This document shows, in pieces, positions 8,436-44,029 of a stretch of DNA of 64,000 bases. Location: the NCBI GenBank assembly GCA_045602215.1, contig JAZSBE010000072.1:1390-65389 (forward strand). Reading direction: 5' to 3'. The notes beneath the pieces are model-generated. The model saw only the letters and a list, made by a program, of their open reading frames with translations, had not been told where the DNA came from and searched no databases. The translations under genes were made by a program, and so were the position numbers. This DNA comes from Eubacteriales bacterium. Its GTDB lineage: Bacteria > Bacillota > Clostridia > Oscillospirales > CAG-272. The stretch's first letter is position 1. Every line of letters begins with the position of its first letter.

Positions 8436-8495
8436 GAGAGTTCTTCCTTTCACGATTTTATATTTGTTTGAATGTATTTTCTTTTTATACAATGA

Positions 8496-8536: not shown

Positions 8537-8603
8537 CTATTGTCCGAGCTGAACGGACACATTCATCTGAAAACGTGGCATCCGCTCACGCCGCTTTGCT
8601 TTT

Positions 8604-9863: not shown

Positions 9864-9894
9864 GTGTATTCTCCTTGATGTATAATATATGTTT

Positions 9895-9923
9895 ATTATA
9901 TCACGAAAAGCACTTAATTTCAA
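9895..9923 (-). promoter_or_regulatory. sigma70-type promoter of the 419-aa lipoprotein gene
   Basis: Reverse strand reads TTGAAA-17 nt-TATAAT with a TG extended -10. Confidence 0.55.
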
Positions 9924-9968
9924 GGCATTTGTCTAAATTCGTCACAAGTTTTGCAAGGAAAGAGAAAT

Positions 9969-9993
9969 GGCGCTCCGCAATTTGCGGAGCGCC
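9969..9993 (-). terminator. Rho-independent terminator after the giant lipoprotein gene
   Basis: Perfect 11-bp stem GGCGCTCCGCA / TGCGGAGCGCC with a 3-nt loop, followed on the reverse strand by ATTTCTCTTTCC. Confidence 0.65.
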
Positions 9994-10049
9994 ACAAGTA
10001 TGTCGCGAATCTCAATCAGGATTGCAAGGTGCAACCCGAGGAGTTACGC

Positions 10050-13000: not shown

Positions 13001-14735
13001 GACCTGCAGCGAGCGTCACGTTAAAGCTGCCACCCTCACGATCATTGTTAGGATCTACGTAGGGAGCTCCTGTCCAAGCATCGTAATCAGCCTTATCAAT
13101 TGCTCCGCATCCTGCGGGAACGAAGATGGTGTAGGTACCGGACACGGGAGCTACGAAATCGTACTGCTGACCGTCAAAGGTATTGTTGTCGGTACCGGTA
13201 ACCTCAAACTCGGTGGTGCCCCAAAGTGCATCGCTCTCAACCACAACGGTCACGCTCTTGGAGATGCTGCCGCTGGTCAGAGTGATCACGTAGGTACCTG
13301 CGCTCTGGAGATAGAACTGAAGCTGCTCTCCAACGAGAGACGCAGTCATACCGGTCTTGTCAACCGTAACGGTTACGCCATCCAGGAAGCTGATGAAAGC
13401 ACCCTCGTTGCATCCAACGTAGAATACGGGAATGTCGTCAACGTGAGCACCGAGATCAACCGTAACAGTGGTAGCCACGGTGGTGTGAGCCGCGTCTGCA
13501 TAGATGATCAGATCGGTGGGAACGTAAGAATCGGTAGCAGGCATGGTGATCGCAGTCTGCGTGCCCGCGGTCTGCGCTACGATGAAGGTGTATGTATCTG
13601 CCTTCGCAGTATCCTTCATGGTAATGGTCTTGGTTGCCTGATCGTAGGTGTAGTCGTGCTCTGCCACATCCTTGAGAGAATTGGTGTAGCAATCGCAAAC
13701 GATCTTGAGAGAGGTCAGTGCGTTTGCCTCGGAGTAAGAGAACTCAACCTCAACCTCGTAGTAGTTTGCGCCGTCATCCTCGCCCTCGGCGGTATCGGTG
13801 TTGATCACGAGAATGCTGTAGGAGAACTTCGCCGTTCTTGCAGTCTGGTCGATCGACTCGGTAAAATCGGAAACCTTGTTCAGAGAGCCTTCAGCGGGCT
13901 TTGCCAGCTCGTAGAGTGCGGTGAGGATGTCCTCAGCACCGTAGCCGTCAGCCAGCGTGGAAACTGCGTAGTAGTAGCCTGCAAGACCTTCTACGTCTGC
14001 GGTAACAGGCTCTGCCTTGGTGAGCGCGCCGTTGGTCTTTTCAATGCTGAGACCGATTGCGCCTTCGCCCTGCATCTTCTTCCAAACCTCGTTTGCCCAC
14101 GCGCCCTCAACTCTCTTGGTGTAGAGACCGTCGGTGTAGACGTTGTACTCTACGTCGTGAGCCATGGTAACGTCACTGGACAAGCCGCGGAAGATCGCGT
14201 CGTAATCAACGGTACCGCTCACGATCTTGTTTGCGTTTGCAACGATCGCGTTGAGAACGGTTGCCATGTTGGACGTGTCGATCACCGTGATCTGCTTGCC
14301 GCAGTCGTCACAGTAGCCGGTAGCGGGGTTCACGATGTGAACGTGCGCTTCGCATACGTCACACTTGTAGTTCTTGTCGTCGTCAGCATGAACGCCCTCG
14401 CTGCTCTTCTGATCAGCGTGTGCGCAGGTTGCTGCCTTCCAGTGCTTGGACTCGTCGGAAGACCAGTCTGCAGCATAGGTGTGCTCGTGTCCGATTTCGT
14501 ATCCACAAACATCGCACAAGCCGTCTTGGCCCGCGTCAACGTGCGCAGCAAGATCGCCCTTGACTTCGCCGTGTTCACAGGTTGCCCGATGCCAGTGATT
14601 GGTTGCATCGCTGGACCAAGCTTCGCTAAAGGTGTGCTCGCACTCATCGTTGTCCTTCTTCTTGCCGATTTCGCAAGAGGAGAACAGCATTGCAACGCTG
14701 AGAAGCAAGCAGAGGATTAAGATTCTCTTCTTCAT
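10050..14735 (-). CDS. giant (1561 aa) surface lipoprotein with repeated PPC-like modules and acidic linkers
   Basis: AAGGAGG RBS. Signal peptide MKKRILILCLLLSVAMLFSSC (lipobox). Two N-terminal His/Cys-rich motifs, at least 5 modules opening with [DN]P[IYF] and containing Y[YF]xY[TV], and poly-D/E linkers. The antisense 1589-aa ORF was rejected. Confidence 0.85.
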   Translation of the reverse strand: MKKRILILCLLLSVAMLFSSCEIGKKKDNDECEHTFSEAWSSDATNHWHRATCEHGEVKGDLAAHVDAGQDGLCDVCGYEIGHEHTYAADWSSDESKHWKAATCAHADQKSSEGVHADDDKNYKCDVCEAHVHIVNPATGYCDDCGKQITVIDTSNMATVLNAIVANANKIVSGTVDYDAIFRGLSSDVTMAHDVEYNVYTDGLYTKRVEGAWANEVWKKMQGEGAIGLSIEKTNGALTKAEPVTADVEGLAGYYYAVSTLADGYGAEDILTALYELAKPAEGSLNKVSDFTESIDQTARTAKFSYSILVINTDTAEGEDDGANYYEVEVEFSYSEANALTSLKIVCDCYTNSLKDVAEHDYTYDQATKTITMKDTAKADTYTFIVAQTAGTQTAITMPATDSYVPTDLIIYADAAHTTVATTVTVDLGAHVDDIPVFYVGCNEGAFISFLDGVTVTVDKTGMTASLVGEQLQFYLQSAGTYVITLTSGSISKSVTVVVESDALWGTTEFEVTGTDNNTFDGQQYDFVAPVSGTYTIFVPAGCGAIDKADYDAWTGAPYVDPNNDREGGSFNVTLAAGQTYSFYFMVPTVGDAYTFSYNVVEHDVEIDDDDDDDGGEVTDNGTVTVGSNSVIITQAEYDANTASRTFAVTVSGNYKFAGDLFIGAVTDADGNAVTRNADYTYTLEAGKTYTITFSMLSNFGRVGANPLTITCESTSGGEEGGDDTTTIQGTYTGTDDWGNSPLTVVIDATTVTFNYSHPMMGDQTATYTYAIVDGAMVLYDENDNVLNPLAGKVTLTNGVPTAAAYNGTDYTLALGGSTGGDDEGDDEGGSGDTAGTAENPIVIETLPTTITQTGEHDVYYTYTVTEDCTIIISSVDGQMCDPTYQLDTYNDYAAGKFYIYARAGETVSINLYSPWGATAGDEFTYSITTAAYANEGDQARPFGMYQDGEFTCQYPGGNDVTKYVWYKVNIYDGGYFVINFADRVNAKYGTDLDNLANVMDATTKVEVAPGDVLYLAIQSFTLGEAEIAFTTGWEYAPGAYDNPYTAEVGDNNESIPAGAYEVYFAYTPAASGTITLTCTGASVYVYDSNVWDWVSADEFAVSAGVTYMIKVEGWEDGATEVAFNLAFEEKVVVITGELVKSQVIATPGNFAESEEYSFTAVAGKYIVNVTDKDTSTWFQIYDAASDSWTKYTDFPAEITLEAGEVNFRLYGWKDEVAGTPVTVEFYLVEEIEGGDDDDDQGAAGTMADPIVLSGAGNYDAIVPAGGIVYYTYTNTGASDVTFAFAVEGSNFWIYYGTYSFNLLDKQLSPGAPNPATVTVAAGATLYITIETYDGNADTINFSLTAEGGEASVGSGLKTDPYIIAGSGEFSAEVAANGEVFYAYTNDGASDVQVTLSFQGSNYYVAYGTYNFMLLDSMATPGAPNPVVTIAAGGTLYISVATYDYAADTIAFTVTVEATGTPGGAGSANVLVLGENAVDVTVTNYYANATTVTFTATEAGTYTLSAADGETNADVYITMGDWCELPYTFTLAAGETISFDVCSEDFMTVTEDTINLVLTKA
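10332..11003 (-). repeat. tandem duplication of a ~112-aa module inside the giant lipoprotein gene
   Basis: GTMADPIVLSGAGNYDAIVPAGGIVYYTYTNTGASDV...GAPNPATVTVAAGATLYITIETYD versus GLKTDPYIIAGSGEFSAEVAANGEVFYAYTNDGASDV...GAPNPVVTIAAGGTLYISVATYD. Similarity is visible at DNA level as well. Confidence 0.7.
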
Positions 14736-14837
14736 AAGAAGACCTCCTTGAAAAAAATTTTGTCACATATCTCAAGCAAAACGCCCAAAACAGGAACAAT
14801 TTTTGGTATAGTTATGCAAAAGATAACTATATACCTT

Positions 14838-14865
14838 ATTATAGCACACATTCCGAGTTTTGCAA
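14838..14865 (-). promoter_or_regulatory. sigma70-type promoter of the giant lipoprotein gene
   Basis: Reverse strand reads TTGCAA-16 nt-TATAAT with a TG extended -10. An inverted repeat lies at the predicted +1 (14805-14835). Confidence 0.55.
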
Positions 14866-14978
14866 GACCTTTTCCTTTTTTCATTTTTTTTTGTAACTTT
14901 GAACAAAAAAATCACGCGTTTGAAAGCTCTTTTTAGAATTCGTTTTGTGTATTTTTATTTTTATTCGGTAAATTCGTA

Positions 14979-15014
14979 TAAAAAAACGGTCTTCCCTCTG
15001 ATCGGGAAGACCGT
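14979..15014 (-). terminator. Rho-independent terminator ending the MoxR/VWA operon
   Basis: 11-bp stem ACGGTCTTCCC / GGGAAGACCGT followed on the reverse strand by T7. Lies 12 nt after the stop at 15026. Confidence 0.8.
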
Positions 15015-15025
15015 TTTGTCATATT

Positions 15026-16564
15026 TTAAGCGTAATATCCGCAGGCAAACAGCCATTGAGAGTCCTCGTAGGCGTAGATTCCTCTCTGCTCTGCCCATCC
15101 GTCACCGTCTGCAAAATATCTGTGCTGAATGGCAAATTTCTGCAGAAAATCGGCAAGCTCTTCGGTCACGGGCGCAACGCCGTCGCTGTTACAAAGCGCG
15201 TTGTACCCTTCCTTACCAATCAAATCCTTCGGACAGTTATTGCAGTTGCTGTGGCAGTCCTCACAGTCCGTCTCGCAGGCACCGGTGTGCCCTGCCTTTC
15301 CCTTGCACTCGCACTCGGGGACGCAGTAGTAGTCACTCGCAACAAGAGCGGCATAGCCTTCGATAAAGTGCTTGTAATTTTGCGTACCGTCGCTTACCGT
15401 GAGCGCCTTGTTACCAAAGGATTCCATCTGGGTGAAAGGGGCGTCCACAAAACGGCAGGGCGCTGAAATATACGCGACCAGAATGGGGCCATAGCCGCCT
15501 GTAGAGGCGTATTTTTCTTCATCGTACACGTGATAAACGCCGTCTCCGCCGTCGGAGATCTTCCACAGCTTGTAGTTGTCTTCATCGAATACGTACGCGC
15601 CAGGCTTCTCGTTGCCGTCTTTGTCCTTGAACAAGGTCTCCGCGCCGACGATCGTACCACCCGCAAGATCCTGAAAGGCTGCAAAATCAAAGCTTGACAG
15701 ATCCGCCGTCACGGGCATCATCGTTTTCTTGATTCCGTGCAGGTCAAAGCCGCCGTTCCGCTTGATGGCAAAGGTCAGCGTGACAGGATAAACGCCACTC
15801 TTCGTCTCTGCCGTCACCGCAAAGGTAAAGGTCTGGGATCCGCCGCCGCTGATCATCTGATCAGCGATCTCTACGGTGTGTACGAAATTTCTCGTAAAGC
15901 TGCCAACCGCGCCCAAGCCTTCCACCGTGTAGGGAGAGTGCTTGTAGCTGGAGCTGCCGTAGTAGGCGACTGCGATGGGATTGACCTCGTCCTCTGCGAC
16001 GCTCGCCCAGCTCTCAACGGTGTAGGTGCCGTTGGTCTTGGGCGCAAACTCAAAGTACGCCATCTCTCCCGGTTCACCGATCGTCACCGAATAAAGACCG
16101 GTGGAGCTGATCTCGTAGCAACCGTAAAGATCGGTTCCCCTTCCCTTTACCAGATTCAAATCGTAAAGGTCGAGGTAGATGTTCCTCTGCAGATTGGTCG
16201 CCGTATAGCCGTTGGTATCGTAGGCATAGCCCGAGGGAACGGTCGAGAGGGTGATCTTGTAATCTCCGTCCAGTCCGTCAATCCTCGCAACCCCGTCCTC
16301 TCCGACAGGAGCTACAAAGATATCGTATCCGTCGCTCCAATAGACGTTGATGGCGATGGTGGGCTTGTAGATCTCCTCGTTGAGACGAAGCGTTACGGTA
16401 AAGTCGTTGGTGGGGTCGTCGTCGGTCTGTCCGCTCTGCACCTTGTCCTTGTCATCGCGTCCTCCGCCAAGGTCAAGGGCGTCCTTGTAGCTGCCGCAGG
16501 CAAAGAGGGTCAGGCAAAAGGACAGAATCAGCAGCATTGCCGTTATTTTTTTGAGCAAAGTCAC
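15026..16564 (-). CDS. lipoprotein with Cna-B-like/PPC-like modules and Cys-rich C-terminal segment
   Basis: GTG start overlaps the upstream TGA (GTGA at 16561-16564). Signal MTLLKKITAMLLILSFCLTLFAC (lipobox). CVPECECKGKAGHTGACETDCEDCHSNCNNCPKDL...C has 9 Cys in 45 residues (15179-15325). Confidence 0.75.
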   Translation of the reverse strand: MTLLKKITAMLLILSFCLTLFACGSYKDALDLGGGRDDKDKVQSGQTDDDPTNDFTVTLRLNEEIYKPTIAINVYWSDGYDIFVAPVGEDGVARIDGLDGDYKITLSTVPSGYAYDTNGYTATNLQRNIYLDLYDLNLVKGRGTDLYGCYEISSTGLYSVTIGEPGEMAYFEFAPKTNGTYTVESWASVAEDEVNPIAVAYYGSSSYKHSPYTVEGLGAVGSFTRNFVHTVEIADQMISGGGSQTFTFAVTAETKSGVYPVTLTFAIKRNGGFDLHGIKKTMMPVTADLSSFDFAAFQDLAGGTIVGAETLFKDKDGNEKPGAYVFDEDNYKLWKISDGGDGVYHVYDEEKYASTGGYGPILVAYISAPCRFVDAPFTQMESFGNKALTVSDGTQNYKHFIEGYAALVASDYYCVPECECKGKAGHTGACETDCEDCHSNCNNCPKDLIGKEGYNALCNSDGVAPVTEELADFLQKFAIQHRYFADGDGWAEQRGIYAYEDSQWLFACGYYA

Positions 16565-19248
16565 TTTTGTACGACCTCCTTTACCTTCTTTTTGAGGAAG
16601 AAGTTCTTAATATCCTTCCATCTTGTTTTTCTGATGAACACGTCTGCCACGAACAACGCCACCGCCGCAATCAGAAGCGGGATGCGCAGGCTGTACTCGT
16701 AAGTCGCCACGGTGTTCATGTCAAGCGTCATATCCACGTTTCCATCGGTATAAACGCCACCACGGTTACGCATGAAATCATGCACGTTTGTAATATCAAA
16801 GACCTCAAACGCATCGTATTCGGGATAGTACGACACGTCAAAATAGGTTTTTGACGTGAAGGAATGCGTGCCGTAGGAATAGGTGATCTCGATCTGATAC
16901 TGGCCGATCTCAGCGGTCTTGAAGGTCGTGAAATAGCGGTTCAGATCAAAGGTCAGATTCTTCTCGGTCACCTTGCCTGAGGGCGTGGTGATCCTGATCG
17001 CCGCTACGGCGCGGGGATTGAGGTGCGAGGGCAGGATCTCTACCGTCGAGTTGTCCCCTTGGTAGTCAATGACAACGTCATAGGGGTAGTCGATCCGCTC
17101 CTTGGGCGTATTGGTAACAAGCACGTTCTCAAAGAACTGTCTCGTCTCTGTGTTGCTCCATTCTTCCAGCCAATCGCCGCTGAGCTTACTGGTAAAGGTC
17201 GCAATGCGGCCGTTTCCGTGGTCTCGGTAAGCATACAACGGAACTTGAACCACCGTATCGTTGTTTTTCTGATAATCGACCGACAGAACCGTCGTAGCGT
17301 CTGCCTTTGCCTTGCTGTTCAGATATCCGCCGACGTCCGACAGAGAGAGGATCCCCGACAGAACGTCATCGCGGAAGGTAACGATATTGACGGCAGTCTG
17401 CTTCTCGATCACCGACTCGGTGAGCTCGTCCGCAATGGTGGCAAACACGAGATCCGAAACCTCCTCGGCACGGCTGAGCGAATAGTGAACGCCGCCGCCC
17501 GCCTGCGCGATCGCGGAAAGTCCCGACGAGGGGCTGATCACGCTGATGGCGGAAACGGTGATGCCGTCTGCGCGCATATTGCGCGCGATCTCCACCGCGT
17601 CCTCGTTTTCGTGGCTATAGGAAAGACCGTCACTGATGATCATAACCTGGCTTTCACCAAAGGAAAGATCCTTGATGTTGGAATATGCTTCCTTGAGCGC
17701 CGCGCCGATCAGCGTTCCCTGATAAGGCGTTTCCCGCTGAATTTCGCTGTAAAGCCACTGACGGTAGGTCGTTCCCGGCTCCACGTCATCAAAAGGCACG
17801 ATGTCGCCAAGCTTCATGGGCTTCCAGCCCTCCTCCACCAGCACCGTTCCCGCAAAGGGCACGTAGATGACGCTGTCGGTGTCAGACAGGAGCGACAACA
17901 GCTTGATCGCCGCATCCTTTGCAATGATCAGCTGGGAGGTATCGTTCATGCTTCGTGACACGTCCAGGACGATGGTGTAAAGCTTTTCGTCCTTGTTGGC
18001 GTTGCCAAAGCTGACGGGAAGCAGCTCCTCCAGCTTTTTGAACACCTCGTGGTCCTTGTTCTGCATCGAGAGGTCGCCGAGCGTGATCAGGCTCTTGCCA
18101 AATCTCGAAACGACGATGTCCACCGAATCCACGAACGCGCTGATGTTGTTGACCTCTCGCACGTCCACGTCCGAAAGGATGATCTCATCGTATTGAGAAA
18201 GCGCCTCAACGGTATAGGGAATGTCCTTGTTTCTGCCGTTAATCACGTAGGCGTCTATTTCGGTGCTGTCCTGATACAACGTCTTCATCATGTCAACGTC
18301 GGACTGCTTTCCCGTAACCAGCAGCACCCGTCTCATACCCGAAACGGTCTGCGTAAAGGTATAGGTATTGTTCTTGTCGGAAAAATCCTCGGACGCGCTG
18401 ATCTCTACCTTATAATCAAAGGTTCCCGACACGTCGGTGGGAAGCGCGAACTTGACGATGTTGATTCCCTGCTCCGCCACCGCAACGGTGGTGTCGAGCT
18501 TTTTGTACTCGGTCTCATTGCTGAGCTTGGAATAGAGATCAATGATGACGTCGCTCTGTGCGCTTGCCTCCAGCAAAAGCTTGAGCTCGGTCTCGTGTCC
18601 GAGATAGGTAGAGCTCGTGTATTCGGCGTCGGAGATCTGAACCTCCTTGTCAGCCGAGGAAAGATTGCTGTTGACGTAAATGGTGTCAAGCTTGATATCC
18701 AGAGACTTCATACGCTCGATCGCGGATATCGTGTCTCCGCCCGAAACGTTATCACAGCCGTCGGTAATCAGCACGATGCGTCTCAATTCACCCTCGCTGA
18801 AGATGGTCGAGGTATAGTCGAGTGCCGCGGCAATATCGGTGCCGCTCGCATCGACCGCTGCCTCCCTGACGCTCTTGATCTCTCCACCCGACGGGGTGAG
18901 GATCACGTTGTCTCTGCCAAAGCAGACGATGCCAAGCTTTGAATTTTGAGGTGCCGACTCGTAAATCTGCTGAATGTAGCCGTCGATCTCGTCAAAATTG
19001 CGGCTCATGGAGTCGGACACGTCCACCACAACGTAGATCTTGGTTCTCGTCATCACGGTGGTGTGCGTGGGATCAGCCGCTCCCAGCACCGCGCACACGA
19101 TGATCACCAGATGGATCACGAGAGACGCGATCCACCCTCGGCTTCTGTTGTCCTTGTTGATCGAGATGAAAAACGGGACGAGCAGTGCAATCACGAGGGG
19201 GATTGCCGCCAAAAGCCAATACGGATTATCGAAGCTGATATTTTTCAT
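16561..19248 (-). CDS. membrane-anchored protein with BatA-like N-terminus and two VWA domains
   Basis: 895 aa. Two N-terminal TM helices, MIDAS motifs VVVDVSDSMS and IVLDVSRSMN, one C-terminal TM helix. Confidence 0.8.
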   Translation of the reverse strand: MKNISFDNPYWLLAAIPLVIALLVPFFISINKDNRSRGWIASLVIHLVIIVCAVLGAADPTHTTVMTRTKIYVVVDVSDSMSRNFDEIDGYIQQIYESAPQNSKLGIVCFGRDNVILTPSGGEIKSVREAAVDASGTDIAAALDYTSTIFSEGELRRIVLITDGCDNVSGGDTISAIERMKSLDIKLDTIYVNSNLSSADKEVQISDAEYTSSTYLGHETELKLLLEASAQSDVIIDLYSKLSNETEYKKLDTTVAVAEQGINIVKFALPTDVSGTFDYKVEISASEDFSDKNNTYTFTQTVSGMRRVLLVTGKQSDVDMMKTLYQDSTEIDAYVINGRNKDIPYTVEALSQYDEIILSDVDVREVNNISAFVDSVDIVVSRFGKSLITLGDLSMQNKDHEVFKKLEELLPVSFGNANKDEKLYTIVLDVSRSMNDTSQLIIAKDAAIKLLSLLSDTDSVIYVPFAGTVLVEEGWKPMKLGDIVPFDDVEPGTTYRQWLYSEIQRETPYQGTLIGAALKEAYSNIKDLSFGESQVMIISDGLSYSHENEDAVEIARNMRADGITVSAISVISPSSGLSAIAQAGGGVHYSLSRAEEVSDLVFATIADELTESVIEKQTAVNIVTFRDDVLSGILSLSDVGGYLNSKAKADATTVLSVDYQKNNDTVVQVPLYAYRDHGNGRIATFTSKLSGDWLEEWSNTETRQFFENVLVTNTPKERIDYPYDVVIDYQGDNSTVEILPSHLNPRAVAAIRITTPSGKVTEKNLTFDLNRYFTTFKTAEIGQYQIEITYSYGTHSFTSKTYFDVSYYPEYDAFEVFDITNVHDFMRNRGGVYTDGNVDMTLDMNTVATYEYSLRIPLLIAAVALFVADVFIRKTRWKDIKNFFLKKKVKEVVQK

Positions 19249-21073
19249 AACAGTACACCATCCAATCCGCAGTAAATATAAGCGCGAGGCAAATGAGTAT
19301 CACGATCAAGGGATCGTACTCTCCGTCGCTTCTCTCGTATTGTTGCTCACCCGCAAGTGAGAAGCTCTCCTCTGTCTGCACAGGATTGCTTTCTCCCTCG
19401 GGCGCGTTTGCATATATGCTGTAGGAACGCTCCTCCCCCGAAACCAAAAGCTTCACGGTATAGCTTCCCACACGGTCAAGAGGCAGGATGGCGGGATCGC
19501 TGGAGCAATCAATGTAGATCTCCTCTCCATCGGGCGCGATCGCCTTGACGTTTTTGATGTTCCCCGTCAGATTGATCTCAACGTCCTCACCGCAAACGTA
19601 ATCCGCTCTCTCGATCACGTCGGGACATGAATACTCGAGGAGATTGCCGAGGAGCGCAATGAAATCGGTCGACAGGGAGAAGTCGGTCTTGTGAAGATCA
19701 AATCCGATCACCACCTCACGGTTTCCGAGCGCGTTCACGCCCGCAAAAATGAGGGGATTGGAATCATAGGAGAACAGCGTTGTAAATCTCGTGTACATGC
19801 CGCTGTATTTGACGTATTCCGAAATATAGATGTCATTTCCCGATACGCCCTGCAAAAGCTTCTGCGCCGCAGACGCCGTGGAATTGGATTTCACGATCTT
19901 GTCGGGCATATCCAGCGTCACAACACCTCTTGCGCCGAAGCCCGAATCGTTGACGTTGGCGCCGGAATTGATCAGCCAAACCGCGCTGTCGGGCAGTACC
20001 TCGGGCGTGAAGGAATGGAAGATGCAAAGACCGTAATTTCCCTCTCCCGTATAATCCTTGGGACGGACCGTGTCCACCTTCGCATCGGTCAACACGTCGA
20101 TCGCCGCCTGCAAGAAGAAGGGCGTATCGCTGACGATCAGCACGTTATAGGAGGTCTCGTTCTTCAAGTTGTAAGACACGTATTGATCATCCGCCGCATA
20201 GGAATCCTCACCTGTGAGTGCAATGCGGAAGGAATCGTAGCTCTGCGCGTTACAGCTGACCGCGATCGGATACCGCTCTCCCGCCTTGACGTCAAAGCCT
20301 TCTGTCTTGGCAGGTGTTGATGCGCCGTTGACGTAAAGCTCTACCTCCAGATGGGTATCGGCATCAAAGGAGACGATCTCGGCATTGACCGTCAAAACGC
20401 CACCCAGGAAGGTGCTTGACACGTTGAAAATGCCGCTGTTCCGATCCTTTTGTGAGGACACGTTCACAACCTCAACGTTTTGATGCGACTCCACCGTTTT
20501 GTCGGTAAACAGATAGACGGAAAAGGAAGGATTTTCGTCGAAATAGTCTTGCGCAGAGGCAAGCGCGTCCGCATGATCCGAGCTCTCGTCGGTCGCCTCA
20601 AGCTTCTCGAGCATATCGAGTGCCACGTCCTTGTCGCTGATGCGCTCGTACACCACCGCCGTGTCGCTCGCAGAGGAGATCAACGTAAACGCGCTTCCCA
20701 GCTTTGCGTCCTTGATGATCTCTGCAATCCCGTCCTTCGCGCGCTCGTATCTGCTCTCGCCGTCGCTCTCCATATTCATGCTCGCAGAGCCGTCGATCAC
20801 AAAGCAGTATTCTCCTGCCGAATCGGGAATGGTGATGATCGGTCTTGCGATCGCCAGAGATATGGAAACCACCGCAAGGATCTGCAGGATCAGACTGATC
20901 AGACCCGTCAGACCGCTCAGCGGGTTTCTTCTCTTGAAGAATTTCTCGCTCAACGTCCAGATATAGGTGGACGGAACGGTCTGCTCGTTATATTTGTTTT
21001 TGAGGATGTATATGAGGATGATGATCGGCACACCGATCAGTCCGCACAGACCCAAAGGATATAAAAATCTCAT
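19226..21073 (-). CDS. BatA-like membrane protein with VWA domain
   Basis: 615 aa. N-terminus MRFLYPLGLCGLIGVPIIILIYIL (aerotolerance-regulator N-terminal type), MIDAS FVIDGSASMN, one C-terminal TM helix. 23-nt overlap with the next gene. Confidence 0.75.
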   Translation of the reverse strand: MRFLYPLGLCGLIGVPIIILIYILKNKYNEQTVPSTYIWTLSEKFFKRRNPLSGLTGLISLILQILAVVSISLAIARPIITIPDSAGEYCFVIDGSASMNMESDGESRYERAKDGIAEIIKDAKLGSAFTLISSASDTAVVYERISDKDVALDMLEKLEATDESSDHADALASAQDYFDENPSFSVYLFTDKTVESHQNVEVVNVSSQKDRNSGIFNVSSTFLGGVLTVNAEIVSFDADTHLEVELYVNGASTPAKTEGFDVKAGERYPIAVSCNAQSYDSFRIALTGEDSYAADDQYVSYNLKNETSYNVLIVSDTPFFLQAAIDVLTDAKVDTVRPKDYTGEGNYGLCIFHSFTPEVLPDSAVWLINSGANVNDSGFGARGVVTLDMPDKIVKSNSTASAAQKLLQGVSGNDIYISEYVKYSGMYTRFTTLFSYDSNPLIFAGVNALGNREVVIGFDLHKTDFSLSTDFIALLGNLLEYSCPDVIERADYVCGEDVEINLTGNIKNVKAIAPDGEEIYIDCSSDPAILPLDRVGSYTVKLLVSGEERSYSIYANAPEGESNPVQTEESFSLAGEQQYERSDGEYDPLIVILICLALIFTADWMVYCYEKYQLR

Positions 21074-21957
21074 TTGGTCACCTCCATATCCGAGAGCTTG
21101 CCGAAAAAGACGTCGGCAGGCGACTCGTATGCCGGCACGAGCATATAGACCGCCCCGCGCGATTCGCAGAACAGTCTGATTCTGTCCGTGATGAATTTCA
21201 GCGCTTCCTTATATGCTTTTACCACGTCGTGGTCGATCTTCTTGCGGAAAAATTTATTGCCGTTCTCCGAGTCAAAGAGGTGCATCTTGCCTCGGATCTG
21301 GGGATTGAGCTCCTCGCGCGAGAGGACCTGGATGCAAATGACGTCCCGCTTCTGCTCGCAAAGTCGGTTGATCGCGTCCTCGTAGTTCTCATCCGTGAGA
21401 AAATCCGATATGATGATGGAAAACCCGTCGCCGCGCCCCACGTTGGAGGGCACGATGGCGCGACTGATGCACGCATCTCCCTCAAACTCGATCTCATTGA
21501 GGCGATTGACGCAGTTGAGGTAGGCATCCTTTCCCACCATTCCGGTTACCACATCGTCAATGCGGTCTCCGTGCATGGCGTAAATGGACACTCTGTCCAT
21601 CTCGCAAACCGAAAGATAGGCAAACGCCGCCGCAAGTCTGATCGCCTGCTCGGCCTTCTCGTCATCGGTTCCGTGACCCATAGATCGGCTCGCGTCTATG
21701 TAAATCTTGGTATGCATCTGCCGCTCGTCATAATACAGCTTTTCATAAAGCTTATCAAAGCGCGCATAGGCATTCCAGTCTATTTTCGTCACATCATCAC
21801 CCGGCACGTAATCACGATAATCGGCAAATTCGCAGGAGGATCCCAGATTTTTGCTTCGGCGGTTTCCACCAAGAGAACCTGCAATATTGTTTTTGAGGAT
21901 CGTTTGCAGAGATTCCAGCTCTCCCAAAAACGCCTCATCGATTACCATCTTTTTCAT
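21070..21957 (-). CDS. DUF58 domain protein (MoxR partner)
   Basis: YRDYVPGDDVTKIDWNAYAR motif followed by IYIDASRSM. ATGA overlap with the downstream gene. Confidence 0.8.
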   Translation of the reverse strand: MKKMVIDEAFLGELESLQTILKNNIAGSLGGNRRSKNLGSSCEFADYRDYVPGDDVTKIDWNAYARFDKLYEKLYYDERQMHTKIYIDASRSMGHGTDDEKAEQAIRLAAAFAYLSVCEMDRVSIYAMHGDRIDDVVTGMVGKDAYLNCVNRLNEIEFEGDACISRAIVPSNVGRGDGFSIIISDFLTDENYEDAINRLCEQKRDVICIQVLSREELNPQIRGKMHLFDSENGNKFFRKKIDHDVVKAYKEALKFITDRIRLFCESRGAVYMLVPAYESPADVFFGKLSDMEVTK

Positions 21958-22961
21958 TAGCGGCCCTTCTTAGTTCCTTTTACGATCATTTCGATGACGT
22001 CGTCCGTCTTCAGCTTGTCATTCACCGCGGTGTAGTTGATCTTGATTCTGTGACGGAGCACGGGATATGCGAGCGCGTCGATATCCTCGTATGCTACGTT
22101 GAAGCGTCCGCACATCAGCGCGCGAACCTTGGCTGCGGTAATCAGTGCCTGTGCCGCTCTGGGGGACGCGCCGTATTTGACGTACTTCTTGGCAATTCCG
22201 TTTGCGCCGTCCAACTCGGGATGCGTGCCCGAAACGATGCGAACCGCATAATCAAGAACCTCGTCGATGGCAAGAACGCTCGATGCAAGCGCTCTCATCT
22301 CGAGGATCTCCTCGCCGCTGATGACCGCCTCGGCGGTTTCCTGCATGGTGATCTGCGTCATTTTGACAATGTCGATCAACTCGTCATTTCCGGGGAAGGT
22401 CATGATCAGCTTGAACATAAATCTGTCCATCTGCGCCTCGGGAAGCGGATACGTACCGTCCTGCTCGATGGGGTTTTCGGTCGCAAGCACGAAGAAGGGC
22501 TCAGCGAGCGCATAGGAGGCCTTGCCGATCGTTACCTTGTGCTCCTGCATAACCTCAAGCATTGCCGCCTGCGTTTTGGGGGTTGCACGGTTGATCTCAT
22601 CCGCCAGAACGAGGTTTGCAAAGATCGGGCCCTTGCGGAAAACGGTCTTGAGCTTGCCCGCGTCGTCCTTTTCGATGATGTTCGTACCCGTGATATCCGA
22701 GGGCATCAGGTCGGGGGTGAACTGGATTCTCGAAAAAGGAAGGCTGAGAACTCGTCCCAGAGAACGAACCAGACGCGTCTTACCGACTCCGGGCACACCC
22801 TCAAGCAGAACGTTGCCCCCTGCAACGATGGCAATCACGATGCTGTCGATGATGTCCTTCTGACCTACGACGTCACGCGCCAGCTCATCCTTTACTCTCT
22901 TTATCTTTTCGCTGAAGTCAGCAACTCTTTCACTGATCTCTTTTTCCATCATTTCGCTCAT
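21957..22961 (-). CDS. MoxR-family AAA+ ATPase
   Basis: Walker A GVPGVGKT, Walker B LADEINR, ATPKTQAAMLEVMQE, 334 aa. Confidence 0.9.
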   Translation of the reverse strand: MSEMMEKEISERVADFSEKIKRVKDELARDVVGQKDIIDSIVIAIVAGGNVLLEGVPGVGKTRLVRSLGRVLSLPFSRIQFTPDLMPSDITGTNIIEKDDAGKLKTVFRKGPIFANLVLADEINRATPKTQAAMLEVMQEHKVTIGKASYALAEPFFVLATENPIEQDGTYPLPEAQMDRFMFKLIMTFPGNDELIDIVKMTQITMQETAEAVISGEEILEMRALASSVLAIDEVLDYAVRIVSGTHPELDGANGIAKKYVKYGASPRAAQALITAAKVRALMCGRFNVAYEDIDALAYPVLRHRIKINYTAVNDKLKTDDVIEMIVKGTKKGR

Positions 22962-22963
22962 GT

Positions 22964-24517
22964 TTATTTCTCCTCATCCTTAAATCCGCTGTAAAGCAGC
23001 GCAAAATATTTTTCTATGGCTTTCTTTTGTTCCTCGGTGTATCCGTACTTTTCATCACCGAGCTTTTCGATCATCAAGGTATTGTACCTTGCGTATAGCG
23101 TTCCGTATTCCACGTATTCTCCCGTGAGCGGATCGAGAACCAGATCGTCGCTTCCGTACTGGACGCCCTCGCCGATACCTCCGGAGGTCGGCTTGTTCTT
23201 ATCGTCCTCCTCATCAAGATCCTGATCGCCCTTGTTGATGTCCTCGCCGTTCTTCACGAAATCGGGACGTTCAAATTGGGGGATCGGAACGGAAAACAAC
23301 ATTCCAAGACGCGTCATGGTGTATTCACCCACGTTGGTGTTGATCTTCTGCGTGGAGATGGTGGTGTAAAATTCATCGGTCATTGCCGAAAGCGTGCCGT
23401 CGACCGCCGAGATCAGCGCGTCGCTGTCTGCACTCGCATGGCTCGTGGGGATCGAAGCAAGACCTGCCAGCTCTCCGTCACCGTTGACGAGCTTGTAGAC
23501 CGACGCATAAAGCGGATCGGTCGGCGCGATCTTGGACGCAACCAGCGCGGTATTCGTCTTTCTCGAAAGATTTTCAAGCGTCCAGCGAATGGTGTCGGCG
23601 GGATCGGCCGTCTCGTTCTCCTCATTCTCGGGGGTCGAGCGGGGCTCTTGCTCCTCCTCCGTACCGTCCGAGGCGAGTGATTGACGAAGGGCGTCGTATT
23701 TCTCGGCAAAATCTCCCCAATCGGGATCCTTCCAATGGCTGGTGTTGAGCGCCTTGGCTAGCAGCATGATATTGACGTCGTCGGTATTCCAAAGCTCGTT
23801 GAGGATCTCAGTCATAGAGGAAGAATCGTAAGTATTCCGCGTAATCTCGGTCAACGCCACGGCAAGAGCCGCCTGCATCTCGGGCTCGGTTTTTGCCTCC
23901 TTCAGCGTGGCAAGCAGCTCGGTAAGCGTGCTTGAGATCTTGCTTCTGTACGGCTCCTCCATCTGTGAGGAACCCACGTATCGGATCAGCTCCTCGATTC
24001 CTGCGATCTGCATCTTGGAGATCTCAAATGGGATCACCTCCTCGGGAGGGATGTAGGGCTCTTTTTCGGGGATCAGAATCCCAGCGGTCAGAGTGCCCGC
24101 TCCTATGAGCAGCGCGAGCGCGTAGATCCAAAGTTTCTTTGCCTTCAGCCTGCTTTTTTTGATTTCCGCCAGCGTGCTTTCGGCGTCCGCTCGCTGAAGT
24201 GCCTGCATCTCGCCCTCCTCGTCTCGGAAGGCAACCGCCGTCTGCACCTTTTCGCTGAGCATGAACTTCTCGTCGATCTCACGCGCAAGCCGTTTGTCGG
24301 ATTTCCAAAGCGCAAAAAACACGGTCAGGAAGGCAACGGCTGCAACACCCGCGCCGATGATTATGGACACCGTGGGAGAAAGCGCGACCCACTCGAGCTT
24401 GTCGAGGATCAACGCCCCTCCCGATGCAAGTGCGCCAAACGCCCCTCCTGCAAGGCACGCCTTCAGGCTCCGAAAGCCCCGAAGCCGCTTTTTGAATTTG
24501 TAAAAGTTTTTGTTCAT
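22964..24517 (-). CDS. membrane protein of unknown family, first gene of MoxR operon
   Basis: 517 aa. AAGGAG RBS. Three hydrophobic segments in the first 150 residues, then a long helical/acidic region. 2-nt gap to moxR. Confidence 0.65.
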   Translation of the reverse strand: MNKNFYKFKKRLRGFRSLKACLAGGAFGALASGGALILDKLEWVALSPTVSIIIGAGVAAVAFLTVFFALWKSDKRLAREIDEKFMLSEKVQTAVAFRDEEGEMQALQRADAESTLAEIKKSRLKAKKLWIYALALLIGAGTLTAGILIPEKEPYIPPEEVIPFEISKMQIAGIEELIRYVGSSQMEEPYRSKISSTLTELLATLKEAKTEPEMQAALAVALTEITRNTYDSSSMTEILNELWNTDDVNIMLLAKALNTSHWKDPDWGDFAEKYDALRQSLASDGTEEEQEPRSTPENEENETADPADTIRWTLENLSRKTNTALVASKIAPTDPLYASVYKLVNGDGELAGLASIPTSHASADSDALISAVDGTLSAMTDEFYTTISTQKINTNVGEYTMTRLGMLFSVPIPQFERPDFVKNGEDINKGDQDLDEEDDKNKPTSGGIGEGVQYGSDDLVLDPLTGEYVEYGTLYARYNTLMIEKLGDEKYGYTEEQKKAIEKYFALLYSGFKDEEK

Positions 24518-24550
24518 TTCTACTCCTTGAACAACAAAAAATACATAATT

Positions 24551-24580
24551 ATTATATCATATAAACACGTTCCGTGTCAA
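24551..24580 (-). promoter_or_regulatory. sigma70-type promoter of the MoxR/VWA operon
   Basis: Reverse strand reads TTGACA-18 nt-TATAAT preceded by TG (extended -10). Confidence 0.55.
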
Positions 24581-24684
24581 TGCCTTTCGCGCTTATCTTT
24601 GCAAATTCCCTGCAAATCGAACGAAATCGGACGTTTTATCTTCCTTGCCCCTTGATTTCCGCCGAAAAATTCTCCTCTCATAAA

Positions 24685-24722
24685 AGAACAGTCGCCAAGC
24701 ATACCTGCTCGGCGACTGTTCT
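24685..24722 (-). terminator. Rho-independent terminator after the yjbR-like gene
   Basis: 12-bp stem AGAACAGTCGCC / GGCGACTGTTCT directly after the stop at 24723, followed on the reverse strand by TTTTAT. Confidence 0.65.
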
Positions 24723-25112
24723 TTATCTATTTTGACCGTTTCGCGCACTTCCCTTTTTCGTTCTCCCCGTCGCCTCAAAGCTGACGCCCGCAAGAAAGCG
24801 AACGACCTCCCTCGGCGCGTCGGGCAGGAGCACCGAGATCCAATGCAGCTTGTTCATGTGATAGGCGGGATAGACGCCGTCCGAGGCGCCAAAAGATCCA
24901 AACATCTCGGTCGGGAGCTTAAGATTGACCACGTCGATCACCTCGTCGCTGTCAATACCAAACTTTCGCCTTGATACACGCATCACGATGGCGTACCACT
25001 TGCGGCTGTCCGCGTGTCTGAACACCGCCGTTTCAAAATCCAAGTCAAACGGATAGTCGGGGGAGGTTCCGTTTGTATCAAGGCAATACGCAAAAAATTC
25101 CTCTCTCGTCAT
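24723..25112 (-). CDS. MmcQ/YjbR family DNA-binding protein
   Basis: MTREEFFAYCL...PDYPFD...VFRHADSRKWYAIV...LKLP pattern. Start moved to the ATG at 25112 (AGAGAGGA RBS, ATGA overlap with the SDR stop). Confidence 0.75.
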   Translation of the reverse strand: MTREEFFAYCLDTNGTSPDYPFDLDFETAVFRHADSRKWYAIVMRVSRRKFGIDSDEVIDVVNLKLPTEMFGSFGASDGVYPAYHMNKLHWISVLLPDAPREVVRFLAGVSFEATGRTKKGSARNGQNR

Positions 25113-25936
25113 ACGTCCTCTCTGGTTTCGTCGATTTTCTTGTTCTTCAGCACCTGCTTGATTGCCCGGCACTGCAAGCCCTTTGGCAAGGCGTTGAGCA
25201 AGAGGAGCAAGGGGTTGCGGTTGATGTGGTATGCAAAGCGCGGATGGCGTTTTTTGAGGATACGCGCAACCTTATCCGCGATTTTGGAAGGCTCCACGCT
25301 CCTTGCCTCCACGCGGTTGACGATCGCCTTGAAGCGAGCGGCGTTACAGGAATAGTGCGTGGTCTTCTCACAGAATCGGTCGAGCGCATCGGTGGAAGCA
25401 CCCAGCATCCCCGTTGAAACAGCCCCCGCGCGGAGAACGCTGACCTCGATGCCGAGAAGCTGAAGCTCCATACGCAAGGAATAGGCGTACTTGTCGAGCG
25501 CGCCCTTGGTAACGGCGTAGATACCCGTGAACGGAAGCGGATCGAGGGGCGCGAGCTCGCTGGTGGTGATCACGATCCGAGAGCCCTTCCTCAAAAGGGG
25601 CAGAAAGATCTTGTTCACCAGAAAAACACCGCCGAGGTTGATCTCAAAAATGCGCTCAAAATCGGCATTGTCGATCTCGACCAGCGAATCGAGCAGATAG
25701 ATCCCCGCGAAATGGATGACGGCGACCAGCTCATCGGTCTCGCGGCAAACCACCTCAAACGCGCGTCTGACGCTCTCCTCGCTCGTGATGTCCGCCTCGA
25801 TGGGCAGGATTCCCTCCTCCACGTCTCCGACCTTCCTGTCCAGCGCAAAGACGCGAAATCCCCGATCGCGCAAGGTCTGTGCCGTGGCTCTGCCCATGCC
25901 GCCGTACGCGCCCGTAATCAAAATTGACGGTCTCAT
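25109..25936 (-). CDS. SDR-family oxidoreductase
   Basis: ITGAYGGMGRA (TGxxxGxG) and YAVTK (YxxxK). TTGACT-17-TATAAT lies upstream. Confidence 0.85.
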   Translation of the reverse strand: MRPSILITGAYGGMGRATAQTLRDRGFRVFALDRKVGDVEEGILPIEADITSEESVRRAFEVVCRETDELVAVIHFAGIYLLDSLVEIDNADFERIFEINLGGVFLVNKIFLPLLRKGSRIVITTSELAPLDPLPFTGIYAVTKGALDKYAYSLRMELQLLGIEVSVLRAGAVSTGMLGASTDALDRFCEKTTHYSCNAARFKAIVNRVEARSVEPSKIADKVARILKKRHPRFAYHINRNPLLLLLNALPKGLQCRAIKQVLKNKKIDETREDV

Positions 25937-26020
25937 GTTATCCCATCCTTTTCCTTTTTTACTGCTTACTTTAACACCATTATATCAAAAAAGACGAAAA
26001 AAGTCAACATCCTCCGCCCG

Positions 26021-26063
26021 ACAAAAATCAGAGGCGGGAGCCGCGTCTGCGGCTGCCGCCTCT
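26021..26063 (-). terminator. Rho-independent terminator after the Ig-repeat lipoprotein gene
   Basis: Stem AGAGGCGG...CCGCCTCT with a nested GCCGC..GCGGC stem, followed on the reverse strand by GATTTTTG. Confidence 0.7.
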
Positions 26064-26114
26064 TTTGTTCTTCTGTTTATAAGCCCAAGGACTTACAAAC
26101 CGAATTTCGTTGAT

Positions 26115-29100
26115 TTAGTATGCGTGTGCTGCGGTAACCAAGGGCGCTGCGGGAGGCGTGGGCTCGCCGGGAAGTGTTCCCTCGTTGTAGCCAAGCACAA
26201 TACCAAGATTATACCAGTAAAGAGCAAGATAATCACCCTTGTAGATGTTACCGTTACCTAATTGATCGGTAAAGGTTTCAAGATCAGAGTAACCTACGCC
26301 GCCTTCGCTGGAAACAAAGATGGGAGGAGGCACAGGAAGTCCTGCGGTCTGAGCCTTAATAAGATCCACATAGGGATTACCGTAAGTGGTATTCATCGTT
26401 GTGGCTCCAATACCCGGCAGCATGACAGGTACATTCGTGTGGTCGTCCATATCCAACGCGGTCGTTCCGCCAATGACAAGTTTTCCGTCAATGTCGGCAG
26501 GCGTACCCGTGCTAACACCGGGGATGTAGTCTGCATCCATATTGATCATGATCATATTCATGAAGCCATTGGCGTTTTCACCAAGCAGTGTCTTAAAGGA
26601 AGAACCACTCGGGAGACAATCATTCACTCCGGCAATCATTCCCGCCTGACTGTCGATACCGTGAGAGGTGAACCATGCCTCGGTACCTACGACGTAGGAG
26701 AATACCGTCGAGTTCGCATCGATGTTCACAATGTTCTTCGACTGGCTGTTGGCAGGGTCGGAGGTATTAGCATTCATACAGAGGATCGCAGGACCGCCCG
26801 CCTTACCTACGAAGGAATTGTTGATGTTGATCGTAGTGGGCACGTGGTTCGCGTGAAGCTCGGTCGCATTCTCGTCATCAATATCGTTCCTGGTCCAGGT
26901 GTTGATGTGAGACTGCCATGCGTCATAGAATTTGGTGTAGTTGAGGTTCACGGTCTGGCAATCATACTCCGGCATCGCCGTGATGTAGTAACGGGTTGCA
27001 TTGACCGCGTTGAGATTGTAGGTCGCCTTCGCGGTCTTGAACGCATAGACACCGAGCATATGACGCTGCGATTCTATCAGATCCTCAACCGAAACAGACT
27101 CGTCGTTGTCGTTCATGCCGAGTGCATAGAAGTTGTAAACGTAGTCTGTGTGGTTGAAGTTCGGCTCGTACCACAGGTTCTCAGCAACGTTGAATCGGAA
27201 GATCTCGGAAGAGGATAATCCGTTGTCGTCATTCGCCAATTTTCCACCGACAAGCTGTGTTCCCTGGGGTGCAACGATGGGAATGTTGTAGGTGTTGATG
27301 GTGAAGTAGTTGCCGTAGAAATTGAAGGTGCCGGCAGACGTCATTTCGTGGTAATAGATGGACTGATGGTCCCAGATATAGGTATTACCGTTTACACCGG
27401 TGCAGAAGTACTCCGCAGGCAGGTCGGTTTTCTGAATGGTGAAGTTGTTGTGGAGAACCACGCCGTTGAGGGTTGCGGGACGTGTGATGCCATTGTTCTG
27501 AAGGAAGGTGTTTACAACCGTGAGCTGGTTATAGCCCGAGTTACCAAGATCCTTGGACACGTTGGTGATCACGTTGAGCTCCTTGGCGTCGTGGATGTTG
27601 TATGCGTCCACAACGGTAACCTCAAGGGTCTTTGTAAAGGTTTCAATCTTGCTGTCAGGAATGTTATCGGGACGGGTCTTGATCACGAAGGTCTTGCCCT
27701 CGGCAGCCTTGGTGAACTGGAAGGTGTGGTTTTCCTCGTCAATGGTAACGTATTCCGAGCCAACGGGAGTACCGTTCAGAAGCACCTCGGATTTGCTCGT
27801 ATAGCCCACGTACTTTTCAACAGGCAGATAGGTCGTGGGATCAAGCAGTTTCAGGTTGAGCGTGTACTTGAAGGGATTGTTGCTTCCTACAACGTAGCCG
27901 TAGCCACTGTCAAGGAAGTTGTTCTGGTAGGTGTTTTGCTTCCAGTTTGCAAGCTGGTCGGGATCAGAAACACCTCCCACAACGTAGTTGAAGTCCTCGG
28001 CAACGATCGTAACCTTAACGGCTGCAGACGTCACGCCTTGGAAGGTAGCCGTGATTTCGCCCTCATAAACACTGTTTTTATCGAAGTCTGCGCCATTGAC
28101 CACGACGCCGTCCTTCACAGCTCTCTCAATAAACTCGCCGTTGGAGAGGGTGAGGTCAACGCGGAGGTTGCTGACGTCGAACTTGCCAAGGGTGGTGTGC
28201 GCTTCAAAGGAACCGGTGTCGATTGCAACCGATACAACGGTCACGACCTCGATCTCGAAGGTGCTCGAGAACGTACCGTCCGCACAGGTGTAGGTTGCGG
28301 TAACCGTCTTCTTGCCTGCGGTGGTGGTGTCAACCGCGGAAAGAGTCAGACCGGTAACAGTTCTGGGAAGATTGTTGGAGAGGGTCGCGGTAGCCGAAAT
28401 CTCTCCTGCGTTATAGGTCTCACCGAGCAATACCCAAGTCGCATAACCGCTGTTGACCTTGATGGAGGTCACAACAGGGGGAGTGCTGGAAAGGATAACG
28501 GTAGCACTGAACTCACCGTAGGTGATCACCCAGTTGCGGTTGCCTGCAGAGTGAGGCGGGAAGTTGTTCGCAACAAGCTTGGAATCGTTGCTCGCAATGA
28601 GGTGTCTGTCACCGTTATTGTAGCAAAGATAAACCTTGAGACCGGAAATGTCGGGATTGTAACCCTCTGCAACGGTCGTGTCAACCGACTCGGGATCAAC
28701 CTCGATGCCTACGGGCAGGATCTCCATAACGGTCACCGTAAACTCAAGCGTGAGCGACTCGTAAGCAACCTTCAGGGTCTGCTCGCCAACCTTCTTGGGA
28801 TCGATCTCGGTGAGGAACTTCAGATCCTTCGCCTCAACGATCTTGGTCGAATTGTCGGAATAGGTAGCCGTGATGGTAAGCGCGGACGTGTCGTAGACGT
28901 CGTTCTTGTAGATGGAGCTCTTCAGTCCGCTGCGGTAAGCCAGAGACGTCAGAGTGGGTGCGACGGGAGTGGTGTCTCCGGGCTTGGGTGCGCTCGGCAC
29001 CTTGACCTCAAGAGAAGCGGTGATGCTGAGCCCGTCATAGGTAATGGTGTACTCCACCTTTTGGGGCTTGGATGTGTCAACTGCAGAAATCTCAACGTCA

Positions 29101-44003: not shown

Positions 44004-44029
44004 GTGTGTAACATTTGAATATCACAAAA

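Follow-up and report, generated by a model that had tools for sequence, protein, structure and literature searches.

We have analysed a 64,000-nucleotide stretch of DNA from a Eubacteriales bacterium (contig JAZSBE010000072.1 of assembly GCA_045602215.1, positions 1,390 to 65,389; called the window in the following) and find that positions 15026-24517 on its minus strand are one tightly packed operon of six genes, g1 to g6, which about 40 species of uncultured Clostridia from the gut have inherited together as one block. We propose, at what we judge to be an even chance, that the operon is a single transcription unit for a clade-specific version of a membrane-spanning MoxR/DUF58/VWA (Bat-like) complex, and that this complex would organise an array of lipoproteins at the cell surface. 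The MoxR/DUF58/BatA/VWA core itself is already known, and its defining features are recognisable in the encoded proteins. New are two unannotated partner families (g1 and g6), a protein with an apparently nested von Willebrand factor A (VWA) domain (g5) and the conserved association of such a module with an array of lipoproteins in a monoderm.

MoxR/DUF58/VWA (Bat-like) gene clusters occur in many phyla and have been connected to envelope, stress or virulence phenotypes. We know of no client or mechanism that has been established for any of them. The variant described here is informative in this respect, as it is compact, belongs to a cell with a single membrane and is tied to two partner proteins and a lipoprotein array, and thereby offers concrete candidate clients and contact sites.

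Organisation of the operon

The operon and its signals comprise the following features, given in the order of transcription.

24682-24720, minus strand: terminator of the upstream gene, a hairpin with a T-run just past the stop codon of the open reading frame 24723-25172
24551-24580, minus strand: operon promoter, TTGACA, 18-nt spacer and TG-extended TATAAT
22964-24517, minus strand: g1, 517 amino acids, membrane protein with three transmembrane segments, unannotated family
21957-22961, minus strand: g2, 334 amino acids, predicted cytoplasmic MoxR-type AAA+ ATPase
21070-21957, minus strand: g3, 295 amino acids, DUF58 protein, VWA-like
19226-21073, minus strand: g4, 615 amino acids, BatA-N and VWA membrane protein
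16561-19248, minus strand: g5, 895 amino acids, double-VWA protein with three transmembrane segments
15026-16564, minus strand: g6, 512 amino acids from a GTG start, Cys-rich lipoprotein
about 14979-15017, minus strand: operon terminator, hairpin of 14 pairs, T runs on both strands

From g1 to g6 the genes are joined by a 2-nt gap, a 1-nt overlap, an ATGA junction, a 23-nt overlap and a GTGA junction. Shine-Dalgarno-like sequences precede g1, g2, g4 and g6, and weaker ones are found before g3 and g5. The promoter is the sole sequence with a 12/12 match within positions 8000-26500 and is separated from the ATG codon of g1 by a short leader of about 25-30 nt; no Rfam element, riboswitches and leader RNAs included, was found across the operon. 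Due to the terminator at 24682-24720 the operon is insulated from the upstream gene. An initial annotation of this DNA, made from the letters alone, had already described the six reading frames with their coordinates, gaps and overlaps, the promoter and the terminator, and all of these were recovered when the sequence was read again. The motifs quoted there (GVPGVGKT, LADEINR, DGSASM, DVSDSM and DVSRSM) are likewise all present in the translations.

Conservation across species

A scan seeded on g1, with one genome per species, yielded 47 loci, all of them from metagenome-assembled genomes of uncultured Clostridia from animal guts except for one that is labelled Bacilli. By tblastn, g1 to g6 are collinear and on one strand in each of the 39 loci with enough sequence; the remaining eight consist of seven that are cut by contig ends and the Bacilli locus, L051. 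The identity to the proteins of the window ranges from 83% down to 24% for g1 and from 71% down to 25% for g6. Four look-ups seeded on g6 returned the identical six-gene block. Since the same order of six genes is found in 39 species, the arrangement is far beyond chance. Conservation extends to the overlaps between the genes; the 23-nt overlap of g4 and g5, for instance, is retained in the loci L001, L003 and L052-L055.

The genes upstream of g1 vary by locus and include an IMS polymerase, a mur/ftsW cluster, MatE and others; thus, g1 is the left border of the block. The initial annotation had named separation of the flanking genes from the MoxR core in related genomes as the observation that would speak against a connection between them. 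The opposite was found, with g1 and g6 accompanying the core in 39 of 39 informative loci. In the Bacilli locus (L051:9020-17000, from a low-GC metagenome-assembled genome), g1 to g5 are present and g6 is absent. The g1 protein of this locus keeps the part with the transmembrane segments and the cytoplasmic loop as well as the C-terminal motif described below, and about 300 very acidic, low-complexity residues replace its helical ectodomain.

Proteins of the MoxR/DUF58/VWA core

In Pfam searches, g2 matches AAA_3 (PF07726) at 1e-60 and AAA_lid_2 (PF17863) at 2e-17. Its Walker A (GVPGVGKT) and Walker B (LADEINR) motifs are conserved at 98-100% in 46 sequences, with one position at 98%, and the whole protein shows 67-93% identity across the loci. 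The neighbouring g3, whose gene overlaps that of g2 by one nucleotide, is a DUF58 protein (PF01882, 1.2e-28). No export signal was found in g2 or g3, and both are predicted to be cytoplasmic, g3 also because it is without a transmembrane segment.

g4 matches BatA (PF07584) at 9e-11 and VWA_2 (PF13519) at 2e-13, and this pair of domains is kept in 10 of 10 diverse homologues. The protein consists of a BatA-N double-transmembrane domain, a VWA domain that is predicted to be external, with the MIDAS motif DGSAS (named for the metal ion-dependent adhesion site) at residues 94-98, about 400 residues of unannotated ectodomain, a C-terminal transmembrane segment and the tail CYExYQLR. Conservation is highest in the elements predicted to face the cytoplasm (0.82-0.96), compared with 0.58-0.63 in the ectodomain.

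g5 has three transmembrane segments and two VWA_2 matches with conserved MIDAS motifs (DVSDS at residues 76-80 in VWA1 and DVSRS at residues 429-433 in VWA2), together with a beta-rich region and a K-rich tail that are predicted to be external and cytoplasmic, respectively; the BatA-N profile does not match it. Furthermore, the GATase1_like profile PF07090 scores 14-26 bits in g5, which is below its cut-off of 27, and does so collinearly in 9 of 10 diverse homologues. Profile positions 34-80 fall on residues of about 320-370 and positions 150-245 on about 600-710. As the PF07090 signal is thus split in two around VWA2, it suggests that, in the window and in these 9 of 10 homologues, VWA2 is nested inside a GATase1-like domain and divides it.

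The three MIDAS motifs that the initial annotation had listed for g4 and g5 were borne out, and to these a fourth has to be added that it did not list. It lies in the DUF58 protein g3 (DASRS, residues 88-92), where D88, S90 and S92 are conserved at 98-100%. In more than 40 sequences, each of the four DxSxS motifs of g3, g4 and g5 reaches a conservation of 95% or more.

The membrane protein g1

By its predicted topology, the 517-residue protein g1 begins with a K/R-rich N-terminal tail, followed by transmembrane segments at residues 20-38 and 52-70, a cytoplasmic loop of 60 residues, a third transmembrane segment at residues 131-149 and an acidic, all-helical ectodomain that ends in the conserved module SxDxVLDPxTGxYVxYG. 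The cytoplasmic loop and this C-terminal module are the best conserved regions of the protein. The AlphaFold2 model (predicted local distance difference test score, pLDDT, 86.7) is all helical with two disordered acidic linkers.

The initial annotation had recognised no family for g1, and no characterised family emerged from the present sequence-profile and structure searches either. Pfam, NCBIfam and PADLOC gave no match, the profile search against PDB sequences returned noise only, and Foldseek found no match of the model in the PDB (best E 0.17). When 98 members of the g1 family were scanned with Pfam, the matches were without exception weak and sub-threshold, mostly to families of transmembrane type. 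DUF4175/TIGR02302-type low-complexity membrane proteins, which we take to be encoded in proteobacterial MoxR operons, were considered as candidate relatives and were not confirmed: HMMER gave no match to g1 at E <= 0.01, and the list of 25 families at E <= 1 does not include them.

An exhaustive hidden Markov model (HMM) search placed 1,913 clusters at 50% identity in the g1 family with a cut-off of E <= 1e-3; with E <= 1e-30, the number is 561. Given this family size and the presence of g1 in a Bacilli locus without g6, the protein is not a local oddity. It had been regarded as an addition to the known module and is better described as an integral subunit of a Firmicutes version than as an add-on.

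Some g1 homologues of about 700 residues (P0116, P0087 and P0256) carry N-terminal extensions of about 190-240 residues, which differ in kind, being either Pro/Glu-rich and of low complexity or made up of extra transmembrane helices. Pfam detected no match and no informative fused domain in the extensions, which could reflect wrongly called start codons or be genuine additions on the cytoplasmic side.

The lipoprotein g6

g6 carries a lipobox (LFAC, with Cys23) and has at least 476 relatives. Its AlphaFold2 model (pLDDT 88.2) shows, by Foldseek comparison with the PDB (E 1e-5 to 4e-4), a prealbumin-like sandwich and a collagen-binding/PPC-like jelly roll in the N-terminal half. The matches include the DUF3823 protein 4fxt, BcpA, the collagen-binding domain of ColH (3jqw) and the C-terminal domain of CPE; they are confined to the N-terminal half and concern generic sandwiches. 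No match in the PDB was found by Foldseek for the Cys-rich C-terminal half, the domain of which contains eight invariant cysteines (C370, C414, C418, C420, C430, C437, C441 and C508). At the sequence level, Pfam and NCBIfam gave no match and the profile search against the PDB returned noise only. The matches to g6 thus concern generic folds in its N-terminal half, and no characterised family was matched over the whole protein. Together, g1 and g6 define two sizeable unannotated protein families with confident predicted structures.

Downstream lipoprotein genes

Two further lipoprotein genes follow the operon on the same strand.

10050-14735, minus strand: g7, lipoprotein of 1561 amino acids; promoter 14865-14838, terminator 9995-9967
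8604-9923, minus strand: g8, lipoprotein with a prealbumin-like (SpaA) domain; promoter 9923-9895

Each of them has a promoter and a terminator of its own, apart from the operon. g8 is 439 residues long when read from a TTG start and 419 when read from the ATG at 9863, which is the likelier start; in either case it is not the second 'mega' lipoprotein that the initial annotation had announced. Its Pfam match to SpaA is sub-threshold (1.8e-4).

The initial annotation also held that g6 shares beta-sandwich modules with both downstream proteins, of which one half could be retained. The HMM of the g6 family matches g8 at E 1.3e-4, and hhalign aligns the g6 and g8 families over 174 columns with a probability of 89.5% (E 2e-6). 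By these profile methods the N-terminal regions of g6 and g8 are homologous. BLASTP of g6 against g7 and g8 gave nothing significant. A sharing of modules between g6 and g7 was rejected, the hhalign signal being either weak or restricted to the signal peptide and the BLASTP E value 0.39.

g7 itself consists of two parts, with residues 1-591 belonging to a family of N-modules with a Cys/His motif and residues of about 629-1508 to a repeat family. The motif H..S..W..HW..ATC...H.D....G.CD.C is duplicated in the g7 family and conserved in 34 neighbours; in the window it lies at about 14330-14650 on the minus strand (g7 residues of about 30-135). A Cys/His module of this type is also found N-terminally in proteins with DUF6273, FGE-sulfatase or other domains, and it may represent an unannotated mobile metal-binding module. 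In other loci, residues 1-591 of g7 align to separate lipoproteins of about 540-630 residues (L052, L054 and L055), and residues of about 629-1508 to separate neighbouring lipoproteins of 1229 residues (L052) and 1402 residues (L054). The g7 of the window therefore has the look of a gene fusion, its two parts being encoded separately in other genomes.

After g6 comes a large lipoprotein gene on the same strand in about 32-34 of the 37 loci, and in most species an array of genes related to g7 and g8 lies behind the block. In the four loci where 10 kb of downstream sequence are visible, arrays of 3-5 genes are found, and a lipobox is present in 15 of 15 of the proteins examined. These arrays hold one or two members of about 540-630 residues with the duplicated Cys/His motif, homologous to g7 residues 1-591, as well as a protein of 970-1411 residues; in L052 and L054, two of the four loci, this protein aligns with the repeats of g7. 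Relatives of g8 occur in the arrays of two of the four (L053 and L055), with 31-34% identity and E values of 1.6e-48 and 3e-39. The array of one locus (L053:16722-21569) includes a lipoprotein with the starch-binding domain CBM26 and is followed by a GH31 glycosidase. The content of this locus hints that at least some of the arrays serve glycan capture.

Predicted topology and proposed mechanism

For g1 the N terminus is predicted to lie inside, followed by a transmembrane hairpin, the 60-residue K/R-rich cytoplasmic loop, the third transmembrane segment and an acidic domain of 368 residues outside. The chains of g4 and g5 are predicted to start outside and to continue with a K/R-rich loop in the cytoplasm, a very large acidic ectodomain that carries the VWA domains, a third transmembrane segment and a basic cytoplasmic tail. 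The VWA domains of g4 and g5, the acidic domain of g1 and the lipoproteins are thus all predicted to lie outside the membrane. This location, on which the initial annotation was silent, is a constraint on any mechanism. For the BatA-like protein BB0173 it has been shown experimentally that the VWFA domain faces the periplasm (PMC5700661), and the layout predicted for g4 and g5 agrees with the topology of that protein.

In the NorQ/NorD system, docking on the AAA+ ring takes place through the VWA domain, which uses its MIDAS to bind an acidic residue on the client (PMC9976466). In the fashion of NorQ/NorD, a hexameric AAA+ ring of the MoxR protein g2 could work in the cytoplasm with the DUF58 protein g3 as its MIDAS-bearing VWA adaptor. 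Their targets would be the cytoplasmic pieces of the membrane proteins, namely, in g4, the BatA loop and the tail at the C terminus, which are its best conserved parts, in g1 the conserved loop of 60 residues, and perhaps also pieces of g5. On the other side of the membrane, g4 and g5 would display three MIDAS-bearing VWA domains for the binding of acidic partners, for which the invariant SxDxVLDP motif at the end of the g1 ectodomain, g6 and the neighbouring lipoproteins are candidates. ATP-driven remodelling from inside would then assemble or reset an external scaffold that holds or organises the lipoprotein array.

A bolder form of this model, which we regard as quite unlikely, would make the complex an integrin-like adhesion switch of the 'inside-out' type, powered by ATP, in a Gram-positive cell. 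In this form, MoxR-DUF58 would exert a pull from the cytoplasm on the conserved loops and tails of g1 and g4 and thereby alter how strongly the external MIDAS sites bind an acidic LDP/LDV-like motif of g1 and the lipoproteins, so that a giant lipoprotein coat would be assembled, held or released. If true, the inside-out switch would provide the first defined client set and mechanism for Bat-like MoxR/DUF58/VWA modules.

Several points weigh against a lipoprotein-organising complex as the function of the operon. The topology is a prediction from hydropathy and positive-inside charge counts, and we infer every protein-protein contact in the model. MoxR and DUF58 are unable to touch the external VWA domains directly, and the model therefore needs signalling through transmembrane helices; to our knowledge, such a passage of signals has been shown for no Bat-like system. 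All host organisms are uncultured, and the argument as a whole is a comparative one. Co-occurrence was followed outward from g1 and g6 seeds only. Three or four distant loci (L039, L040 and L042) are without the lipoprotein neighbour, and the promoters of g7 and g8 possibly place these genes under separate regulation.

Alternative explanations

The last two of these points lead to an alternative that we consider somewhat unlikely, in which the operon is a generic Bat-like module for envelope integrity or stress, with g1 and g6 as lineage-specific structural subunits and the lipoprotein array as a mere neighbouring 'surface island'. The four core genes fit the widespread MoxR/DUF58/BatA/VWA set, and the related RL3499-RL3502 and Bacteroides fragilis Bat operons give envelope or aerotolerance phenotypes, as cited in PMC5700661. 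Besides the separate promoters and terminators of g7 and g8 and the three distant loci without a lipoprotein neighbour, the variation of the downstream lipoproteins in number and kind from species to species is also in line with this explanation. Against this explanation, the lipoprotein neighbour has been kept in about 32-34 of the 37 loci with free variation of the genes upstream, and the lipoprotein g6, which is N-terminally homologous to g8 by profile comparison, is tightly packed inside the operon via the GTGA overlap.

The cysteines of g6 and the Cys/His motifs of the g7 family raise a different possibility, that of a maturation chaperone for a metal centre, in which the MoxR/VWA machine would load or remodel the g6 Cys cluster or the g7-family repeats in the manner of NorQ/NorD, CoxD/E/F or Mg-chelatase. 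The eight invariant cysteines of g6, most of them clustered within about 30 residues, and the duplicated, conserved H..W..HW..C...H.D....G.CD.C motif in the g7 family would suit such a function, and it is as machines for cofactor insertion that MoxR/VWA pairs are best understood (PMC9976466, PMC13036017). We nevertheless regard this explanation as very unlikely. g6 and g7 are exported unfolded whereas the ATPase is cytoplasmic, so that any ATP-driven insertion would need to operate through the membrane. The block contains no gene for a metal transporter or for cofactor synthesis, the Bacilli variant retains the machine without g6, and the Cys cluster of g6 could equally well be a disulfide knot.

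A role in anti-phage defence or conflict, as a ternary system of the MoxR-VWA kind (MoxR-vWA conflict systems are described in PMC7159879), can practically be dismissed, since the match of g2 to bpMoxR (PF20030, 3.6e-15) is far weaker than that to AAA_3, no beta-propeller or effector domain was found, and the block appears to be inherited vertically, with high identity in about 40 species and outside variable islands. An identity as a known defence system was also rejected, as PADLOC gave weak generic AAA matches for g2 and nothing for the other five proteins.

Other features of the window

Upstream of the operon, the window contains a lipoprotein of 1066 residues with Big_3 domains (26115-29315, minus strand) and a near-consensus promoter at 26007-25979. 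Long stop-free reading frames lie antisense to genes at 9951-14720 (plus strand, 1589 amino acids), 6444-8471 (plus strand, 675 amino acids) and 27348-29264 (plus strand, 638 amino acids). Their translations are junk-like. In this genome of about 52% GC, such frames probably arise as a by-product of codon usage, TTA, CTA and TCA codons being scarce in the sense frame. The window also contains two T-box leaders and three clustered tRNA genes (Gly-TCC, Arg-TCT and His-GTG), located at 44028-44271 (plus strand), 48322-48568 (minus strand) and 52448-52746 (plus strand), which is consistent with an origin from Firmicutes.

Comparison with known systems

The combination of MoxR, DUF58, a BatA-N and VWA protein and a second transmembrane VWA protein in one cluster is shared with the Bat operon of Bacteroides fragilis, including its upstream MoxR and DUF58 genes, with BB0170-BB0176 of Borrelia and with the bat genes of Leptospira. 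Borrelia BB0173 has the same layout of three transmembrane segments as is predicted for g4 and g5, with the VWA domain between the second and the third. For BatC (TPR), BatD and BatE (SH3), neither Pfam nor NCBIfam gave a match in the six operon proteins, g7 or g8. Judged by these profiles, the operon is thus a Bat-like core and not a full Bat operon (batA-E). In place of the missing components it encodes the acidic helical protein g1 with its three transmembrane segments and the Cys-rich lipoprotein g6. Its second VWA protein is far larger than that of the Bat operon (895 residues) and contains two VWA domains and an apparent GATase1-like domain. Furthermore, the host is a monoderm Firmicute, and a lipoprotein array is a conserved neighbour.

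The operon RL3499-RL3502 of Rhizobium leguminosarum was called 'broadly conserved', and its phenotypes concern the cell envelope and morphology (Vanderlinde et al. 2011, cited in PMC5700661). By its description, it likewise has a four-gene core of MoxR, DUF58 and membrane proteins. Its membrane components presumably carry an N-terminal double-transmembrane region and a GATase1-like (PF07090-type) domain. In the operon described here, by contrast, the GATase1-like domain appears to be split by a nested VWA domain, and g1 and g6 have no known counterpart in RL3499-RL3502.

The nearest conceptual parallel is the PFNA cluster of Bifidobacterium (pkb2, fn3, aaa-atp, duf58, tgm), for which a MoxR-assisted folding of the FN3 surface protein has been proposed (PMC8430577). 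There, a MoxR protein of the MRP subfamily and a DUF58 protein occur in fixed order with a large secreted FN3 protein, and the idea is the same as the one put forward in the initial annotation, that the MoxR/VWA machine may mature, insert or hold surface lipoproteins. The further partners in PFNA are a transglutaminase-like membrane protein and a Ser/Thr kinase, whereas here they are transmembrane VWA proteins, and the surface protein there is an FN3 protein, whereas here lipoproteins take this place. In Pfam and NCBIfam searches, g1 and g6 showed no detectable similarity to annotated families, including FN3, kinase and transglutaminase.

Finally, NorQ/NorD, CbbQ/CbbO and RavA/ViaA each combine a MoxR ring with a MIDAS-bearing VWA partner, and g2 and g3 fit this pairing. 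The MIDAS of the VWA partner binds an acidic residue of the client, which is remodelled upon ATP hydrolysis (PMC9976466). The clients of these three systems are known enzymes, all on the cytoplasmic side, whereas the operon described here adds three more VWA domains that are predicted to lie outside the membrane.

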